This document shows, piece after piece, positions 1,295 through 16,064 of a stretch of DNA of 16,064 nt; positions within the stretch are counted from its first letter, which is position 1; the number at the start of each line of letters is the position of its first letter. This stretch comes from Candidatus Hadarchaeales archaeon (GTDB lineage: Archaea > Hadarchaeota > Hadarchaeia > Hadarchaeales > Hadarchaeaceae): assembly GCA_038851565.1 (NCBI GenBank), contig JAWCKV010000022.1, positions 1 through 16,064 on the forward strand. Reading direction: 5' to 3'. The position numbers and the translations under genes were made by a program. Under the pieces are notes generated by a model. The model saw only the letters and a list, made by a program, of their open reading frames with translations, made no database searches and was not told where the DNA came from.

Positions 1295-2100
1295 GTCCAT
1301 CGGCTGAAGTGGCGATCATAGGCGGCTCGGGGCTCTACTCGCTGGAGTCGCTGGAGGGCGCGAGAAGGGTATCCGTGGGCACACCATATGGAATTGTAAA
1401 GGATGTGCTGGTCGGCGGGATATCGGGGAAGAAGGTCGCCTTCCTGCCCAGGCACGGAAGGGGGCACACGGTTCCTCCGCACCTGGTGAACTACAGGGGA
1501 AACATATGGGCGCTGAGGAGGCTTGGGGTGGAGAGGGTGCTGGCCGCCACCAGCTGCGGCTCCATGAATCCGAGGATCAAACCAGGGGACCTCGCAATTC
1601 TCTCTCAGTTCATCGATTTCACGAGGTGCAGGCCCAGCACCTTCCACGAGGGGGGAAGGTCAGGGGTCGCACATGTCGACATGACCGAGCCCTACTGTCC
1701 TGACCTCAGGGGGCGGCTGCTCCAGGCTGCCAGAAAACTGCACCTGAGGGCGCACGGGGATGTCGTCTACGCGTGCACCGAGGGACCGAGGTTTGAAACC
1801 CCTGCGGAGATAAGGGCAATGAGGATGCTCGGCGCGGATGTGGTGGGGATGACCAACGTCCCAGAGTGCGTGCTGGCGAGGGAAGCTGAAATGTGCTACG
1901 CTGCTGTGGGGATAGTGACAAACTTCGCTGCCGGGATCTCGGAGAGGAAGCTCACGTACGATGAGGTAGTTGAGGTTGTCCGAAAGAGCGCAGATATCAT
2001 ACAGAGAATTTTCGGAGAGGTGATCCAGGAGCTGACTGGCGAGAGGAGCTGCGTGTGCGGAAAGGCGATGGAGGGGGCCAGGGCTCACTCCCCCTCGTAG
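1291..2100 (+). CDS. mtnP: S-methyl-5'-thioadenosine/thioinosine phosphorylase
   Basis: Motifs IIGGSG, FLPRHG..H..PPH.VNYRGNI, EGPRFETPAE, DVVGMT..PE..LARE and VTN. GTGA overlap with the uppS stop. Confidence 0.92.
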   Translation: MSPSAEVAIIGGSGLYSLESLEGARRVSVGTPYGIVKDVLVGGISGKKVAFLPRHGRGHTVPPHLVNYRGNIWALRRLGVERVLAATSCGSMNPRIKPGDLAILSQFIDFTRCRPSTFHEGGRSGVAHVDMTEPYCPDLRGRLLQAARKLHLRAHGDVVYACTEGPRFETPAEIRAMRMLGADVVGMTNVPECVLAREAEMCYAAVGIVTNFAAGISERKLTYDEVVEVVRKSADIIQRIFGEVIQELTGERSCVCGKAMEGARAHSPS

Positions 2101-2339
2101 GTCTCTTCCTCCTCAACCTCGGGCGGCTCGAGTTCAAACTCCTGTTCGATAAGCCTCTTCTTTTTCTTGTCCTCCGTTATGACCGCGACCTCTTTGGGCT
2201 CCTTACACTTCTCGCTTATCCTGTAGGACGAAGGCCTCTTCACCTTTCCCCTGTATCCGCACCTGGGACAAACGAGCTTTCTGGAGCGCCCGACCTTAGT
2301 CGGCATCAACACCGTCCCGCACTTCGGACAGAACTCCAC
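2085..2339 (-). CDS. RpoM/TFS-like protein with the N-terminal Zn ribbon only and an acidic tail
   Basis: (M)EFCPKCGTVLMP...LVCPRCGY matches the N-terminal Zn ribbon of TFS/RPB9. GTG at 2339 is preceded by an AGGTGA Shine-Dalgarno-like site, so it is preferred over the track start at 2387. Confidence 0.75.
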   Translation of the reverse strand: MEFCPKCGTVLMPTKVGRSRKLVCPRCGYRGKVKRPSSYRISEKCKEPKEVAVITEDKKKKRLIEQEFELEPPEVEEEETYEGE

Positions 2340-2453
2340 GGGCTCACCTGACAAAAGAATAAAGGCTCTCCGGACCCTTATAAGCATATCGAGCGTGCGG
2401 ATGACCGGTTACTCTACTTATTTTAGCGTGAAGATATGTGATTTTGGGATACC

Positions 2454-3911: not shown

Positions 3912-4723
3912 CCGAGGCGCTCCGGAACGTTCTATCGGACAGGGAGCTGAGCCTTCTTCCTGGCGGCTTCGACCGCATAGGTCACGTGGCAGTGATCTCC
4001 CTTGCGGGGGAACTGCTCCCAAGGTCCCAGGAGATCGCTGGAGCCCTTCTTAGGATGGGCGGAATAAGGACCGTCATGCTGCGGGAGAGGGGCGTATCGG
4101 GGAGAACCAGGTCTCCGGGGCTAAAATTTCTGGCGGGCGATCCAAACACGGAGACCCTGCACAGGGAAAACGGATGCCTGTTCAAGCTCGACGTGGGGAA
4201 GGTGATGTTCTCCACGGGAAACCAGCACGAGAGGGCTAGGATCGCGAAACTCGTCCAGAGGGGGGAGGTTGTCCTCGACATGTTTGCAGGCGTGGGGCAG
4301 TTCACAATACCAATAGCGAGGCTCTCCGAGGCTGCCGTGGTTTACTCTACTGAGATAAACCCGGTCGCATTTCACTACCTGTGCGAAAACGTGCGCATGA
4401 ACAGGGTGGGGCACAGGGTGAGGCCGATCCTGGGGGACTGCGCGCGCGAGGCGCCGAAGGGAATGGCAGACAGGGTGGTCATGGGAATACTTCACGTTTC
4501 ACAGGCATATATCAGGCACGCGATCGAGGCGCTTAAGCCCGCGGGCGGGATAATTCACTACCATGAGAGCGTGCCCTCCAGAATCAGGTTTGAGAGGCCG
4601 GTGAGGAACCTGATGAGCGCGGCGGGAGGACGTGAGATAGAAATACTGGGAAGGAGGGTGGTGAAGAGGTACGCGCCCGGGGTCGATCACGTTGTTATAG
4701 ATGTAAGGGTTGGAAGGAGGTGA
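3899..4723 (+). CDS. taw2: tRNA(Phe) wyosine aminocarboxypropyltransferase Taw2 (Trm5/TYW2 family)
   Basis: Motifs RIGHV, HRENGC.FKLDV.KVMFS.GN..ER, DMFAGVG.F, DRVVMG (rather than the Trm5 NLP motif), IIHYH and KRYAPGV.HVV.D. The likely start is ATG 3899; the track's upstream 86 aa overlap the DHH gene. Confidence 0.8.
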   Translation: MGCLAEALRNVLSDRELSLLPGGFDRIGHVAVISLAGELLPRSQEIAGALLRMGGIRTVMLRERGVSGRTRSPGLKFLAGDPNTETLHRENGCLFKLDVGKVMFSTGNQHERARIAKLVQRGEVVLDMFAGVGQFTIPIARLSEAAVVYSTEINPVAFHYLCENVRMNRVGHRVRPILGDCAREAPKGMADRVVMGILHVSQAYIRHAIEALKPAGGIIHYHESVPSRIRFERPVRNLMSAAGGREIEILGRRVVKRYAPGVDHVVIDVRVGRR

Positions 4724-5217
4724 AACACACGAAGGGACTGGTGGAACCCAGCAGAAAGGAGCTGGCAAAGCTCAGGGCGATGGCGGATTACCTGTTTGAG
4801 AAGGGGGCGGGGATGTCCCTGTTTCCAGACCGCGTGAGGCTGGTCAAGAGCAGCGGAAGAATAAGGCAGGTCTGGCTTGACGGAGAGCCTCTCTGCGCCA
4901 TAAGGGCAAACGACGGATTCATCGTGCTAAACAGGAAGGGAGCGGAGATGCTTCACTCCGCAGTCAGGGCGCCAAGACTTCGGGTGGTGGTAAGCGATGA
5001 CGCCGCCCCCTTCGTGGCGTCCGGGAAAACTGTGTTCGCGGGACATGTCTTGAGCGCAGACCCGGAGATAAGGCCGGGCGAGGAGGTTCTGGTGGTCAAC
5101 GGCAGGGACGAGCTGCTGGCCAGCGGAACCGCTTTATTATCTGGGGAGGAGATGTCAGCGTTCAGACACGGGGTGGCCGTGAAGGTGAGAAGGGGGATGA
5201 AAAGGGAGGGCAAATAG
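4720..5217 (+). CDS. PUA-domain protein resembling the C-terminal C2/PUA part of archaeosine tRNA-guanine transglycosylase
   Basis: LRAMADYLF...GRIRQV...IRANDGF, then RVVV..DAAPFV..GKTVFA.HV...DPEIRPGEEVLVV...LLA.G.A.LSG.EM....GVAVKVRRG. GTGA overlap with taw2. Confidence 0.85.
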   Translation: MKHTKGLVEPSRKELAKLRAMADYLFEKGAGMSLFPDRVRLVKSSGRIRQVWLDGEPLCAIRANDGFIVLNRKGAEMLHSAVRAPRLRVVVSDDAAPFVASGKTVFAGHVLSADPEIRPGEEVLVVNGRDELLASGTALLSGEEMSAFRHGVAVKVRRGMKREGK

Positions 5218-10619: not shown

Positions 10620-10686
10620 CGTTATTGTGTATTAAGTTTTTTTGAGGGGACAAAGCTATTTTTCACCGGAGAAGATAGCCTTTTGG

Positions 10687-10759
10687 GCCGCCGTAGCTCA
10701 GCCGGTAGAGCGATCGCCTCGTAAGCGATAGGTCGTGGGTTCAATCCCCACCGGCGGCT
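10687..10759 (+). tRNA. tRNA-Thr(CGT)
   Basis: Acceptor stem GCCGCCG/CGGCGGC, D arm GCTC/GAGC, anticodon arm ATCGC-CTCGTAA-GCGAT, T arm GTGGG-TTCAATC-CCCAC, discriminator T. No encoded CCA. Confidence 0.97.
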
Positions 10760-10788
10760 TCACAGCCTGTGCCTCATTCGGAAACCAA

Positions 10789-11385
10789 TCAATACGTCCA
10801 GACTGGAATCTCCTTCCATCTAGCTCCGTGTGCCTCCAAGGTCCTTGTAATCGCTGATGCCATCTCCCGTGGCACCATCAGCACAGCTTTCCCTATTTTT
10901 AAAACACCGGGACGCACAGCAACTCCATCGTACCTGTGAAGGTAGCGCTTCTTACCCCGCTGGGTTGTTGAGGTCCTGCCATACAGCGCGTGGTTTAACC
11001 TGTTTCTGGCATTCACGTCGAGCCCTTCTGTGTTGTAGGCGATTATCACCATCGGGTTAAGCCTCAGTTTGTGGACCTGCAACACCACTGGTTTGCCTGA
11101 AAGCATGAGCCCCTCCCCGCTCAGCGCCCCAGCCAGAGAAACATTTTTTTCAAGCTCCTTAGAGGTGACATGCACGATGTGGACGCGTGGGGGGGCAAGT
11201 TCTTCTACCTGCTTCATAGTTGCTTCATCTTTCCTTGAATAAATCACGGCAATGTCAATGTCGCTTTCTACCGTGGCCTCGCCCCGAGCAGCGCTGCCAA
11301 AGAGCGCTGCCGCCAAAACACAGGGAAGTTTGCCTACCCTTTCGCCGAATTCGAATAGCTCCCTCAGCCGAGCACCCGCATGCAC
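10789..11385 (-). CDS. Minimal nucleotidyltransferase (MNT) antitoxin with an extra C-terminal domain
   Basis: LFGSAARGEATVESDID is an exact GSX10DXD motif. The gene overlaps the 3' end of the upstream HEPN-like gene. Confidence 0.88.
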   Translation of the reverse strand: MHAGARLRELFEFGERVGKLPCVLAAALFGSAARGEATVESDIDIAVIYSRKDEATMKQVEELAPPRVHIVHVTSKELEKNVSLAGALSGEGLMLSGKPVVLQVHKLRLNPMVIIAYNTEGLDVNARNRLNHALYGRTSTTQRGKKRYLHRYDGVAVRPGVLKIGKAVLMVPREMASAITRTLEAHGARWKEIPVWTY

Positions 11386-11726
11386 GCCTCCCGCACCTCC
11401 CTGAGCATCTCCAATGCCCGCTTGGCTACTCCCCCATCGCTGCCCCTTCCGTAAACGTGCCTCGGCCTGAGCTGTTCCAGCGCATTAATGGCTTCAGCAA
11501 TCTTAAGCTCACCAACCCGGCGCCGCTCGATCTCGCCCGCCAGCCTGTTGTGCTTGATGTCCCTGTCAGCGGGAGTTATCCTGAGCTTGTGCAACGCGGC
11601 ATTCACGTAGTGAGCGGAGATCAGCACGCAGAGTTCGACAATGGCCTCGTAGTCGGCGCTTTGATCCAGCTTACTGAGAGTTCCCTCCATGGCCCGTAAT
11701 TTTTGTAAATGGTCCTCTATTTTCAT
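11364..11726 (-). CDS. HEPN-like toxin of a HEPN-MNT toxin-antitoxin pair
   Basis: 120-aa predicted helical protein with SAH..NA.L, KH and LEQLRPRHVYG, coupled to an MNT gene. Confidence 0.7.
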   Translation of the reverse strand: MKIEDHLQKLRAMEGTLSKLDQSADYEAIVELCVLISAHYVNAALHKLRITPADRDIKHNRLAGEIERRRVGELKIAEAINALEQLRPRHVYGRGSDGGVAKRALEMLREVREACMRVLG

Positions 11727-11854: not shown

Positions 11855-11881
11855 TCGTGGGTTCAATCCCTACCGGCGGCT
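11855..11881 (+). repeat. Direct repeat of the tRNA-Thr 3' end (att-like site)
   Basis: TCGTGGGTTCAATCCCTACCGGCGGCT matches 10733-10759 (TCGTGGGTTCAATCCCCACCGGCGGCT) at 26/27 positions and is followed by CCA. Confidence 0.92.
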
Positions 11882-11980
11882 CCACGCGAAAATCGATGCG
11901 ATCCATGTAATGTCAACCAGTTTAAGACCATAGTAAGAATAGTTAGAAATAAATGACAAGCTAAGTATATCATCATATGG

Positions 11981-12964
11981 ATGTATCTAATCGTGGACGA
12001 TTGGAAAACATTCGTTGGTAAAAAAGAGAACCGTTTTGAGTTACTTCAAGGAGAAAAAAGGCAAGAATTTTGCTCGGACGATCTGAGCCAGATAATAATT
12101 GTGGCGGCATCTTCAATATCAATTGGAGCGATTCGCCTAGCATTAGAAAAAGGGATAGACATCGTTTTTATAAGTCGTTTTGGATATCCCGTTGGTCGCA
12201 TATACCCTTGCAAACTTGGCGGAACAACGCTGACTCGCAAAAAACAGCTCGAAGCTTACTTTTCTTGGAAGGGTTTAGAGCTGGCTAAAAAATTTGTTTA
12301 TGGCAAAATAAAGAATCAAGTCGCTGTTTTGAAAAATTTGCAAAAAACGAGAAGCAACGTTGATTTCACCAAATATATAGAAAAAATGGAGGAGAGAGAA
12401 CTCCAAATCGATATGATTGATGGGAGTTTAGACGAAGTCCGCGAAAAACTATTAGGTGTGGAAGGTAATGCAGCCAGCGAATACTTTCAAGCGCTTGCGG
12501 AGATATTGCCGTTTGAAAAACGAGATCGAACTAGCGCTGACCCATTTAACATAATGCTTAACTATGCATACGGAATCATTTATTCAGAAGTCGAAAGGGC
12601 ATGCGTTTTGGCAGGTCTCGACCCATATTTTGGGTATCTACATACAGACCGTTATGGTAAACCCTCCATGGTCTTGGATTTGATCGAAGAATTCCGTGCG
12701 CCCCTATCAGATAAACCCGTAATAACTCTTTTTGCTAGAAAACAAGTACGGGATAAGGACTTTGATAAAAGTGGCGAAAGTGTTCTGCTAAGTGAAACGG
12801 GACGAAGAAAAGTGATTGAGGCCGTGATTGAAAAGTTACACGATACAGCAAAAAACAGGGGTACTGAAAAAAGAATATGTAATATAATAGTTGAACAGGC
12901 ACGTGCGATAGCCCGATTTATTTTGAGTGAATCGGAGAAATATGAGCCTTGGAGTTATGTTTGA
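11981..12964 (+). CDS. cas1: CRISPR-associated integrase Cas1
   Basis: Motifs K..NQ, LLGVEGNAA..YF, D.FN.MLNYAYG, GLDPY.GYLH and S...DLIEEFR...D. The catalytic E/H/E residues are present. Confidence 0.97.
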   Translation: MYLIVDDWKTFVGKKENRFELLQGEKRQEFCSDDLSQIIIVAASSISIGAIRLALEKGIDIVFISRFGYPVGRIYPCKLGGTTLTRKKQLEAYFSWKGLELAKKFVYGKIKNQVAVLKNLQKTRSNVDFTKYIEKMEERELQIDMIDGSLDEVREKLLGVEGNAASEYFQALAEILPFEKRDRTSADPFNIMLNYAYGIIYSEVERACVLAGLDPYFGYLHTDRYGKPSMVLDLIEEFRAPLSDKPVITLFARKQVRDKDFDKSGESVLLSETGRRKVIEAVIEKLHDTAKNRGTEKRICNIIVEQARAIARFILSESEKYEPWSYV

Positions 12965-13264
12965 ATGATTTGGTGGGTTATCTACGATATCGCTGGCAAT
13001 AAAACAAGAAGCCGGGCGGCGTCCGCATGCATGAACTATGGGCTAAAAAGAGTCCAAAAAAGCGCATTTCTGGGTGAGCTTACAAAAAATCGTGCTGAAA
13101 TGCTGGCACTCGAAATTAAAGAAATCATATCTCCAAACGATTGCGTGTTTCTTATTCCATGCTGTTCCAACTGTTTTAAAGATAAGATCATTTATGGCGA
13201 GTTTGATGAAGAAGCTGTAAAGAAAAAGGATTGGTATATTGTAACTGGCGACAATGAAGGATGA
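12965..13264 (+). CDS. cas2: CRISPR-associated protein Cas2
   Basis: VIYDI....R......C..YGL.RVQKSAF.G and a CxxC motif near the C-terminus. Starts immediately after the cas1 stop. Confidence 0.96.
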   Translation: MIWWVIYDIAGNKTRSRAASACMNYGLKRVQKSAFLGELTKNRAEMLALEIKEIISPNDCVFLIPCCSNCFKDKIIYGEFDEEAVKKKDWYIVTGDNEG

Positions 13265-13835
13265 ACAAACCTTATCTGCAAAGGATATAATGAACTTCTG
13301 CTATTGCCCCAGAATTATTTATTATGAGCATGTCCTCAAGATCAGGCAAGCTACAACTAAAAAGGAGCTTATAGGTCGCGAAAAGTACGAAGAATTCAAA
13401 AAGAAATCGAGACGAGGCAAGATAATAAAAGAGTTTCCAAAACTAAAAAAACTTTATGATGTTTATTTATACTCAAATAAAATGAACATTGGGACTCGTG
13501 TTGATTGCGTTGCTATTAATGAGGTAAAAAAAGAAGCGTATCCAATCCAAATAAAGTATTCAAGCAGGCCATCAAAAATATACAAAACGCAAAAGTTACA
13601 ACTGCTTCTTGAAGCTAAACTCATAGAGGAGATAATGGGCTACAGCACGCCTCTAGGTTTTATTAAATTTCTAAAAACTGATGATTTAGTTCCCGTTAAT
13701 GTAAAAAACAGATCGGAACTTGATACAGCAATCTGCGATATAAAAAAGTTCATCCATACGGAAGTGTTTCCCGATCCCACCAGATATAAAAGAAGGTGTG
13801 TCGACTGTTGTTATAGAAAAAGGTGCTGGTTATGA
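13254..13835 (+). CDS. cas4: CRISPR-associated protein Cas4 with a variant nuclease motif
   Basis: Fe-S ligands YCPR..YY and C..C.Y...C, plus RecB-like RVD...PIQIK. Located between cas2 and the effector. Confidence 0.92.
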   Translation: MKDEQTLSAKDIMNFCYCPRIIYYEHVLKIRQATTKKELIGREKYEEFKKKSRRGKIIKEFPKLKKLYDVYLYSNKMNIGTRVDCVAINEVKKEAYPIQIKYSSRPSKIYKTQKLQLLLEAKLIEEIMGYSTPLGFIKFLKTDDLVPVNVKNRSELDTAICDIKKFIHTEVFPDPTRYKRRCVDCCYRKRCWL

Positions 13836-15469
13836 CAAATGAAGGAGTTATAACTAGTGTAAAGTTCAAATTGTATTTTGACAACGAAAACGATAGAAGA
13901 GAGATGGACGAGTTCTTTGATGAATATGCTAAAGCAGTTACCTTTGCAGCAAGGATTATTGACAAATTGCGCAAAAAGTTCAAGCCTTTGGGCAGGTATG
14001 TTGACAAAAGATGGGTCCCAGAGATAGGCGTTTGCAGTAAGTGCAATAAGAATGGTGAGCTTTATCGCGTTAACACTTACAATGGGGAAAAATTGTGTAA
14101 ATCTTGTTACAATCAAGACTTCAGTGACACCGCAATCCGCAAAAGAATCGTGCCTGTGGTTCGTGGCAAAAGGAAGGGTGAAAAAGTTGATGGTAGCCTT
14201 AATCTTCGTAATGTCACAACAAAAATTTCTCAGACACATATGCACTATGCCGTTAGGGACGCCCTTCAAATTCTTGACGCTTTAAAAAAGCAACGAAAAC
14301 AAAGATTAAAGAGGCATATACGTGACAAAAAAAGACTAAAAATGTTCGAAGAAATGCTTTCAGATCCTCTTAAAAGAGTTGAAGTTCCGCAAAGGAAAGG
14401 ACAAAGGGTGGTGAGGTATGTACACAAGTCTCAGGAAGATAGAGTTAACGAACTTCCAGGATACTCGCTGGCCAAAATAAAAAATAAAATTGTTATTCTG
14501 AAAAGAAATCTATATCGCGATAAAAAATCTCTGTTTAAAATGAACCCAATTTATTTCAAGGGAACGAGAGTTACTCTGACCCCGACAATTAAATTCGACG
14601 TTTCGAATAATCGAGTCCGTATTACCCTATTGCGTGCGAGATGGTACGGATTCAGCGGAAGTAACGTTGCAAGTGAGCGCGGCAGGAAATATTTTTCAGA
14701 AAAATTGCAAAAAATATTGGCTTTGAAGCCAAGATACGCTTATCTCATTAGAAAACAGATAGCAGAGGTCAATGGAATGCCAATTTATGAGTATTATCTG
14801 CAGTACGCTGTTGAGGAGTTCCCCAAGCCCATTTTGGAGTATACAGGAGTTTTAGGAATAGACTGGGGAATCAAAAAATTGGCCGCTCTAGTTTTTTTTG
14901 AGAAAAATGATCCAAATAAGCCAAAATTTGTGAAGTTTTTCAAGGCAGATGAGATAATAAAAACAAAGATATCTTGGAGAAAACAGCGATACGCTCTTAC
15001 AGGGTTGCATCACAGAATAGAAAAAATGAAGAGAATGCGTCCGATAAAACCCAAGATTGATTATATATTACATAACATTTCAAAAGAAATTGTTAATATG
15101 GCAAAACAAAAGAATGCTGCAATTGCAATTGAAAAACTTGAAAAAATAAAAAAAAGTAAACCTCGACAAAGATCGAGAGAAAAATACTTCTTATCACTTG
15201 GAGATTATGCAAAATTGGCGCAGTTTATTTCTTACAAGGCAAAAAAAGAGGGTATTGCTGTGATTGAAATTTCACCGGAGTACACAAGCCGGGTTTGTAG
15301 TCACTGTGGTTCGATTAATACTGAACGTCCTTACAAAAAACCGAATGCTTTAAGACCGTCTTGGTCTCTTTTTAAATGCAACGACTGTGGGGTAGAGCTA
15401 AATTCAGATTACAACGCCGCTTGTAATATAGCTAAAAAGGGTTTGGATGAGCTTACTCGTAGCCTTTAA
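13832..15469 (+). CDS. cas12f: Type V-F miniature effector Cas12f2 (Cas14b-like), 545 aa
   Basis: RuvC-I LGIDWG, RuvC-II IAIEKL, YTS..CSHCG...FKCNDCG Zn finger and RuvC-III NSDYNAA.NIA. The N-terminal SVK.K...F.EYAKA.TF, the CSKC/CKSC Zn finger and Y.YLIRK...YEYYLQY match my recollection of Micrarchaeal Cas12f2. ATGA overlap with the cas4 stop; adjacent to cas1/2/4 and the array. Confidence 0.9.
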   Translation: MTNEGVITSVKFKLYFDNENDRREMDEFFDEYAKAVTFAARIIDKLRKKFKPLGRYVDKRWVPEIGVCSKCNKNGELYRVNTYNGEKLCKSCYNQDFSDTAIRKRIVPVVRGKRKGEKVDGSLNLRNVTTKISQTHMHYAVRDALQILDALKKQRKQRLKRHIRDKKRLKMFEEMLSDPLKRVEVPQRKGQRVVRYVHKSQEDRVNELPGYSLAKIKNKIVILKRNLYRDKKSLFKMNPIYFKGTRVTLTPTIKFDVSNNRVRITLLRARWYGFSGSNVASERGRKYFSEKLQKILALKPRYAYLIRKQIAEVNGMPIYEYYLQYAVEEFPKPILEYTGVLGIDWGIKKLAALVFFEKNDPNKPKFVKFFKADEIIKTKISWRKQRYALTGLHHRIEKMKRMRPIKPKIDYILHNISKEIVNMAKQKNAAIAIEKLEKIKKSKPRQRSREKYFLSLGDYAKLAQFISYKAKKEGIAVIEISPEYTSRVCSHCGSINTERPYKKPNALRPSWSLFKCNDCGVELNSDYNAACNIAKKGLDELTRSL

Positions 15470-15472
15470 ATA
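15465..15472 (+). promoter_or_regulatory. TATA box candidate for the tracrRNA
   Basis: TTTAAATA fits the archaeal TATA consensus. It overlaps the cas12f stop and lies about 25 nt before the first stem at 15495. Confidence 0.5.
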
Positions 15473-15494
15473 TAATCAGCAGCATAGAATTAAC

Positions 15495-15793
15495 TGTCAT
15501 GTCTCGTGGGATCCCATTCGCTAAATGAATGGGATTGACGTGGCAACATGTCGCGAGCTACAGTGGTAATGTTCCACACTCGCATGCTACAATAACATGC
15601 GAGGGCGAGCGAAGGATTAAAAGGGCGGCGTTGCACCGCAAAAGGGTTGTAAAACCCTCGATGGCCCGAAAACCACGGTAAGGTATGTCACCAATAGCGG
15701 ATAAATCCGCCCAAGGTGATTTAGCGTGGTGCGAGCCACGCATACCGACGGGCCAATCCGAAGTTCGGTTCATATGGTTCTGCATATGTTTTT
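15495..15793 (+). ncRNA. tracrRNA candidate of the type V-F system
   Basis: Anti-repeat GTTCG-GTTCA-tatg-GTTCTGCA (15763-15784) is complementary to the repeat 5' part. Loop GTTGCA (15630-15635) in a GCGG/CCGC hairpin is complementary to the repeat 3' end TGCAAC. Many stems are present and it ends in a T5 run. Boundaries are inferred. Confidence 0.8.
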
Positions 15794-15876
15794 AAACTCA
15801 TATACGAAAAAATGACAGTCCAAAACTTGATGTAATAAATGATCCCCTTTGGAGATTTGGTTCACTTTACGGCGGT
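15794..15876 (+). promoter_or_regulatory. CRISPR leader candidate
   Basis: AT-rich non-coding stretch between the tracrRNA T-run and the first repeat. Confidence 0.5.
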
Positions 15877-16064
15877 CTTGCAGAACTTGAACTAACGAAC
15901 GTAGGAATGCAACTAATAAAAAGGAGGAATTATTAGTTGACACTTTGGTAAACTTGCAGAACTTGAACTAACGAACGTAGGAATGCAACGTTCTTACCTT
16001 CTCAAGCCTCTGGATGTCCTCAATCTTGCAGAACTTGAACTAACGAACGTAGGAATGCAACTTG
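15877..16064 (+). CRISPR. CRISPR array with 37-nt repeat CTTGCAGAACTTGAACTAACGAACGTAGGAATGCAAC (likely continues beyond the window)
   Basis: Three identical repeats at 15877-15913, 15953-15989 and 16025-16061. Spacers are 39 nt (15914-15952) and 35 nt (15990-16024). Confidence 0.98.

Follow-up and report, generated by a model that had tools for sequence, protein, structure and literature searches.

Gene and RNA content of the locus

The 16,064-nt stretch of DNA analysed here (the window) is the entire contig C22 (GenBank JAWCKV010000022.1) of a Candidatus Hadarchaeales genome (G000; 823 kb, 87% complete). From position 11981 to its end it carries a CRISPR-Cas locus, which an earlier note, made from the sequence alone, had read as a complete type V-F2 (Cas14b/Cas12f2) system taken up horizontally by an archaeon outside the DPANN group. 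Four genes on the forward strand abut or overlap as that note described: cas1 (11981..12964; 327 amino acids (aa); TIGR00287, 289 bits against a cut-off of 72), cas2 (12965..13264; 99 aa), the start of which abuts the cas1 stop, cas4 (13254..13835; 193 aa), which overlaps cas2 by 11 nt and has a C-terminal cysteine cluster visible in the sequence, and cas12f2 (Cas14b; 13832..15469; 545 aa), which begins with an ATG in an ATGA overlap with cas4. Profile and PADLOC searches identified the adaptation module cas1-cas2-cas4 beside the effector. The effector itself scored 690 bits against the NCBIfam Cas12f2 model NF049972 (cut-off 450) and was labelled Cas14b by PADLOC (E 4.5e-134), in agreement with the proposed subtype, and the 545-aa nuclease was recovered again in a hot-spring run, no RNA data set being among the holders listed. 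Among aligned Cas12f2 homologues, the RuvC residues D344, E434 and D526 were invariant in all 12, and the cysteines of the two zinc fingers were invariant or nearly so. The locus is a genuine and canonical type V-F2 CRISPR-Cas system. An identity as an IS200/IS605 TnpB was ruled out, the scores lying below the cut-offs (guided_TnpB 99.6 against 100; IS200_TnpB 55 against 425) and the gene standing in a cas operon.

Downstream of the effector, and likewise on the forward strand, a CRISPR array (15877..16064) runs into the contig end. It comprises three identical 37-nt repeats (15877-15913, 15953-15989 and 16025-16061), for which none of 200 shuffles gave any match, and two distinct spacers of 39 nt (15914-15952) and 35 nt (15990-16024). 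Since the window is the whole contig, the array is incomplete, and the word complete, as used before, applies to the cas genes and the tracrRNA only. The putative trans-activating CRISPR RNA (tracrRNA; 15495..15790, forward strand, ends approximate) was delimited by its fold and by conservation with the closest locus, L065: the region 15470-15876 folds better than its shuffles (z -3.4), and about 15495-15790 is conserved between the two loci. In that comparison 11 of 73 predicted pairs were changed on both sides, covariation that is weak because the alignment has two rows only. A long anti-repeat (15762..15785, forward strand) is predicted to pair with the 5' 24 nt of the repeat at -21.8 kcal/mol, a value that none of 200 shuffles equalled, and a short one (15630..15635, forward strand) with its last 6 nt. 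The short anti-repeat by itself is not significant (65 of 200 shuffles equal it); its support comes from three loci, the window, L065 and the Nanoarchaeota locus L001, in which its surroundings are conserved, and from G051, where anti-repeat and repeat have changed together. The leader (15791..15876, forward strand) is poorly conserved with L065; over its final 14-17 nt it is similar to the ends of the leaders in the arrays of G002. The tracrRNA-like region, leader and identical repeats of the earlier note are supported. Rfam held no family matching the tracrRNA, a DNA search of the phylum's genomes with it gave one weak match (E 0.008) and no other, and a sigma-70 promoter scan, which uses a model unsuited to archaea, stayed at chance level. 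Viral contigs did not contain the repeat.

The cas genes have a GC content of 0.35-0.40, against 0.59 for the host, and of 0.35-0.39 at third codon positions (GC3), against 0.74 in 12 host genes, so that the AT-rich character first noted for the locus stands. All four are under purifying selection, with nonsynonymous divergence (dN) of 0.17-0.25 against synonymous divergence (dS) of 2.3 or more, or saturated. The intact catalytic residues, this purifying selection and spacers that differ between genomes together suggest, though only indirectly, that the system may be active.

The host and its tRNA-Thr(CGT) insertion site

The Cas1 of G013, a genome of the same family, is letter-for-letter identical to a protein labelled Candidatus Hadarchaeota, and in the window's own genome priL (417 aa) and priS (327 aa) are separate genes. 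A fused PriS-PriL primase is a marker of DPANN archaea, one that is not universal among them. NCBI taxonomy places Hadarchaeota, a group of the deep subsurface, within Methanobacteriati. By kinship with a labelled relative, the host is a Hadarchaeon and not a DPANN archaeon, as had been guessed from its flanking genes.

Upstream of cas1 lies tRNA-Thr(CGT) (10686..10761, forward strand), an insertion hot spot. Copies of its 3' end on the same strand, one attL-like (10733..10763) and one attR-like (11855..11885; 31 nt, two mismatches), bound a 1.1-kb cassette between the tRNA and cas1. On its reverse strand this cassette encodes an antitoxin-like MNT-type nucleotidyltransferase (10789..11385; 198 aa), with homologues at 66-73% in three relatives and 37 bits against the MntA family (cut-off 60), and a HEPN-like partner (11364..11726; 120 aa) with a putative toxin role, which had no Pfam match and only a lead from the Atlas (HEPN on 28% of one cluster).

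The genome G001, of the same genus, has the same 16 host genes in the same order (55-80% aa identity), then tRNA-Thr, and then, without the MNT/HEPN-like cassette, cas1 to the contig end. From window position 11872, within the attR-like copy, the two sequences are identical for 193 bases, from the tRNA end into cas1, whereas their host genes are about 70-75% identical, with a dS of about 1.06 in the two genes tested. A second G001 contig opens on the remnant of a repeat, followed by a spacer that differs from those of the window and by the last repeat, and a radical-SAM gene lies some 30 nt on. The two G001 junctions and the 193 identical bases, set against a host dS of about 1, indicate that the CRISPR cassette is real and has recently crossed between two species of one genus, the latest transfer detectable. 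The join to the chromosome, for which the earlier note had considered a chimera, is thus repeated in a second species with its own tRNA-to-cas1 junction. Of the att-like site placed just in front of the locus by that note, the copy exists, but it closes the MNT/HEPN-like cassette, and in the sister species the CRISPR block abuts the tRNA. The toxin-antitoxin-like cassette was most likely inserted after the CRISPR block.

In 7 of 25 loci examined, which were picked from motif matches and are non-random, radical-SAM/nreA genes lie directly 3' of tRNA-Thr(CGT); seven relatives have the empty site that the earlier note asked about. Extra tRNA-end copies occur 3' of tRNA-Thr in six relatives (G039, G045, G013, G050, G012 and G004), and in G004 the same MNT/HEPN pair lies between such copies. 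Their presence in these relatives marks the tRNA as a family-wide site of cassette accretion. In G002 a tyrosine integrase gene stands 3' of a tRNA-Thr end, and only on G002 contig C38 was an att-like copy seen behind an array, at a distance of about 90 nt.

Small tandem cassettes closed by copies of the tRNA-Thr 3' end were also observed at L114, L046, L115, L116, L124, L132 and L133. They contain beta-propeller proteins, radical-SAM proteins and toxin-antitoxin-like pairs, with no integrase inside. On contig C42 of the window's own genome (5988-6128; L085), the start of a cas6 gene lies at the contig end just past a radical-SAM gene. This partial cas6 is 90% identical to a full Cas6, and by synteny only a class 1 locus probably shares the tRNA-Thr hot spot in the same genome. 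A second hot spot swapping CRISPR types appears at L084:15989-16665 (G013) and L142:818-1501 (G050), where a nucleotidyltransferase cassette is followed by an apparent duplicate of the pheT 3' end, beyond which one of the two genomes has V-F2 cas1 and the other has cas6.

Relatives of the locus in Hadarchaeota and DPANN archaea

The nearest Cas1 is that of G013 (75%) and the nearest Cas12f2 that of L065 (68%); named Cas12f2 homologues other than the L065 type come from DPANN archaea, at 48-51%. The gene flanking L065 has its best named matches mostly in Hadarchaeota (70-76%), the other labels among the matches being one Methanobacteriota and one 'Hodarchaeaceae', a label that has been wrongly given to Hadarchaeota genomes according to the available text of PMC13700489. 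In the Cas1 tree the window protein groups with that of G013 (support 94), far from five other Hadarchaeota Cas1 proteins, and the sister of their four-protein group is a pair that includes a protein from Aenigmatarchaeota (100). In the Cas12f2 tree the window and L065 group together (100) within a clade that holds all four DPANN-labelled rows (96). The comparison with DPANN proteins suggested at the outset thus places both window proteins among them, with Hadarchaeota relatives closest. GC3 rises from 0.22 in a DPANN locus through 0.35 in the window, 0.41 in L065 and 0.49 in G013 to 0.74 in the host. These patterns point to a horizontal origin from the DPANN gene pool, the donor being a matter of inference.

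The whole effector of the window's clade was found in 1 of 66 genomes of the phylum, its Cas1 in 2 and its repeat in 6, a control pattern giving no match; taken together, repeat and cas traces are present in 7 of the family's 46 genomes and are spread over some nine different sites. A model built from the repeats added one more copy (G033) and one weak match and was otherwise circular. These counts are lower bounds, as contigs break at the cassette in G001, G002 and G013, where the AT-rich cas cores fall in assembly gaps and are hidden from effector searches. The V-F2 cassette thus appears to be resident in the family. Near-identical loci being common in this lineage, which would have contradicted the earlier note, is partly the case: one congener is identical where it can be compared, while related loci are otherwise scattered, not common.

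Two further Cas12f lineages occur in the phylum. A distant Cas12f2 in G051 (L042:6261-8700) and G026 (L043:12605-14500) scored over the NF049972 cut-off, is 26-28% identical, forms a separate branch and is more GC-adapted. Like the window, the lineage has the short anti-repeat in the same context; unlike it, it has no cas1, cas2 or cas4 alongside. G051 has an array of five repeats with an integrase-like gene nearby, and in G026 a tracrRNA-like region is kept and no array was found beside the effector. On these differences the lineage is an independent acquisition. The third lineage, at L113:8352-11336 (contig C27 of G050, a genome with 8% contamination), comprises a Cas14a-like effector of 598 aa, a 10-repeat array and a cas4 fragment, and is capped by a relic V-F2 repeat. 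There are, then, three Cas12f lineages within one small phylum, for the most part hidden by the loss of AT-rich cas cores from assemblies.

V-F2 repeats also cap several junctions with other DNA. In G002 the last repeat of one array is joined to a conserved ilvD-neighbour gene, of which the first ~10-14 residues are missing. Arrays stand at two sites in this genome (L108:1-1342 and L109:11860-12231), alike in their leader end but not in their spacers; one ends in the truncated host gene and the other before an att-like copy. A fork of the two at a shared spacer was rejected, since the 16-17 nt that they have in common are similar to the leader end. A 329-nt spacer in G002 holds a promoter-like stretch and a gene start, and had no match in the phylum's genomes or in viral contigs. 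In G006 an island of ATPases, a cas3 fragment and a class 1 repeat is capped on each side by a V-F2 repeat, the two in the same orientation (L111:887-923 and L112:1358-1394), and one of these repeats is joined to the last 95 aa of cas3. The island sits ahead of sepS, at a junction uninterrupted in five of six genomes compared. The gene beside the G006 repeat was at first a candidate pheS, an identity rejected in favour of sepS. L065 has a leader and a single repeat with no spacer, and a host gene ends 13 nt later. In G033 the end of a class 1 array is formed by a V-F2 repeat (L110:4101-4137), and 60 nt ahead of cas6 stands a second, degenerate copy that shares its variant letters (L145:293-322); synteny does not join the two contigs. 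Read plainly, such junctions are relics of turnover at hot spots.

A solitary relic V-F2 repeat was also observed in the window's own genome (C11:15677-15713; L086:5678-5714), between convergent host gene ends that by eye are ahcY-like and aRF1-like. It is closer to the L065 repeat (32 of 37 positions) than to that of the window (30 of 37), which suggests an earlier cassette at another site.

Two other genes of the window may be recorded. At 2085-2387 (reverse strand) lies a TFS/RpoM-like zinc-ribbon protein, below the TIGR01384 cut-off and conserved in G001, in which an acidic tail replaces the usual C-terminal zinc ribbon, and at 4720-5217 a stand-alone C2+PUA protein that matches only the C-terminal part of the archaeosine synthase ArcS.

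Origin, spread and comparison with known systems

We consider it very probable that the window holds an intact V-F2 cassette of DPANN ancestry, resident in one Hadarchaeota family and moved between species as cargo at defence hot spots, here tRNA-Thr(CGT). By analogy with characterised systems, Cas4-Cas1-Cas2 would add spacers of 35-39 nt at the leader end, the array RNA would pair with the tracrRNA of about 300 nt through the short and long anti-repeats, and Cas12f2 would use its RuvC site to cut double-stranded DNA beside a 5' T-rich protospacer-adjacent motif (PAM). As to its history, an ancestor may have entered Hadarchaeota from DPANN archaea; the cassette would have come to lie directly behind tRNA-Thr and then have crossed recently between the two species of the genus. 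The MNT/HEPN-like cassette would have been inserted later in the tRNA 3' end, duplicating 31 nt, with a tyrosine integrase supplied in trans as the probable agent.

Several points weigh against this reading. The phylum is assigned from the label of a relative rather than from a marker tree, and the protein trees were built by a quick method with Shimodaira-Hasegawa-like approximate likelihood ratio (SH-aLRT) support only, without bootstrap and unrooted (midpoint), with taxon labels on a minority of rows. The cas core of G001 is unassembled, so the identity between the two species covers just the 193 nt and the repeat. At the right end of the G001 cassette no att copy was seen, so that tRNA-att integration of the CRISPR block itself is at most a possibility, and a search of the window's own assembly, 87% complete, found no integrase. 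In run X1 a single contig is one base short in an A-run at position 13817, near the cas4 end. This variant would shift the last cysteine of cas4; its depth is 3.5 and it may be an error. Depths in that run, about 3-8 over the cas genes against about 8-12 over host genes, were not used and give no share of cells. Finally, exact 22-25-nt parts of the two window spacers and one G001 spacer had no target in IMG/VR. As no spacer target was found, there is no PAM and no proof of recent use.

The missing targets could also mean that the locus is a decaying or inactive passenger. GenBank phages gave no target, spacer 2 had none in 65 other genomes of the phylum, and the window spacers had no full-length self-match; the possible cas4 frameshift and the many relic repeats in relatives point the same way. 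We hold this improbable, however, because the four coupled frames are intact, catalytic residues are kept, the repeats show no differences, the genes are under purifying selection and the spacers vary from genome to genome. A one-off recent gift from a DPANN symbiont to this host alone, close to what the earlier note had proposed, would account for the low GC3 of 0.35 against 0.74, for DPANN names on the Cas12f2 homologues besides the L065 type and for a whole effector in just 1 of 66 genomes. It is largely refuted, and we give it little credence: the nearest Cas1 and Cas12f2 come from Hadarchaeota and their dS is saturated, the family has traces in 7 of its 46 genomes, one stretch is identical in a congener, and assembly gaps at the cas cores mask effectors. 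Of the proposal, the DPANN gene pool as origin survives and the single recent gift does not. An assembly chimera, in which a DPANN cas contig was joined to the Hadarchaeon through the tRNA repeat, is the least credible alternative. The junction does fall within a duplicated tRNA end, and among the listed pieces of run X1 no contig bridges 11826-11993 and one departs from the window at 11891. Yet G001 has its own tRNA-to-cas1 and array-to-host junctions, the exact overlap of its tRNA with the window's att copy is too short for a false join, and in G004 the MNT/HEPN pair likewise lies between tRNA-end copies.

The repeat-capped junctions admit a bolder explanation, which is unlikely. In Hadarchaeota the V-F2 Cas1-Cas2 might also act as a mobiliser that joins a repeat end to the chromosome, and to other long DNA ends, as if to a spacer, leaving repeat-capped junctions and islands. 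The locus would thereby land at new sites, and defence islands, even type I CRISPR loci, would be taken up as giant spacers. An array would in that case resemble the gene-capture site of an integron, and CRISPR loci would have a new means of movement. The fusions in G002 and G006, the two co-oriented G006 repeats, the lone repeat of L065, and in G002 the 329-nt spacer and two arrays with one leader end at two sites all fit this idea. But relics are to be expected where a locus has been replaced at a hot spot, since a repeat forms the end of each array; the paired contigs are linked by synteny only, which fails for G033; the breakpoints are not fixed to the base (homologues are about 40% identical, and no intact cas3 was found in five genomes); and the left end of the window's own locus is a tRNA end, not a repeat. 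We therefore hold such a mechanism doubtful, and prefer carriage as cargo at hot spots. Nothing was found in the literature on repeat-flanked long-spacer integration or repeat-bounded islands, although subscription papers and supplements may hold it.

If the favoured reading is right, the locus documents a whole adaptive immune system recently crossing a species boundary. The three Cas12f lineages are evidence of repeated gene flow from DPANN archaea to Hadarchaeota, which hints at contact between hosts and symbionts, and the 545-aa nuclease with its predicted tracrRNA is a candidate heat-stable miniature nuclease.

Integrated elements that target tRNA genes insert at the tRNA 3' end and duplicate it, as seen at the window. 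In contrast to these elements and to casposons, the cassettes here are small and without an integrase, the Cas1 is of CRISPR type, and neither terminal inverted repeats nor a polymerase gene came to light. As far as their available text goes, published accounts report V-F systems in DPANN archaea and class 2 systems as rare in archaea (PMC7694759), nine of ten archaeal Cas14 homologues in DPANN and one in Euryarchaeota (PMC10606334), and class 2 systems in 25 archaeal genomes of four phyla, Hadarchaeota not among them, with V-F limited to Nanobdellota and Micrarchaeota (bioRxiv 10.1101/2025.11.27.691053); the part available of PMC13477220, which covers 13 Hadarchaeota genomes, does not mention type V, and nor does that of PMC13700489. 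We found no report of a Cas12f or Cas14 in Hadarchaeota, although subscription papers and supplements may hold such loci.

Structures of the type V-F1 Un1Cas12f1 (Cas14a1) have been solved, according to the accessible text of PMC8053092. Its C-terminal RuvC/zinc-ribbon region is like that of the window effector (E 7e-11), a similarity confined to the C-terminal third. Un1Cas12f1 also uses a two-part repeat:anti-repeat pairing like that predicted here. Among the closest known systems are Mi1Cas12f2 and Mi2Cas12f2 of Micrarchaeota and AuCas12f2 of Aureabacteria which, in the available text of PMC7229846, likewise have a compact RuvC effector, cas1, cas2 and cas4, and a putative tracrRNA between nuclease and repeats; tested Cas12f2 proteins work with a tracrRNA so placed, recognise a 5' T-rich PAM and cut after position 21. 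The same source shows a bacterial Cas12f2, so that V-F2 outside DPANN archaea is not unprecedented, and the Nanoarchaeota locus L001 has the same cas1-cas2-cas4-cas12f2-array order as the window. Compared by locus features, the window differs from the tested V-F2 systems in its Hadarchaeota host, its GC-rich genome, the tRNA-Thr hot spot and its spread between species. V-F2 is a known kind of system, seen here in a phylum for which no report of it was found, and there is good evidence that the cassette is resident there and has recently been transferred between species.

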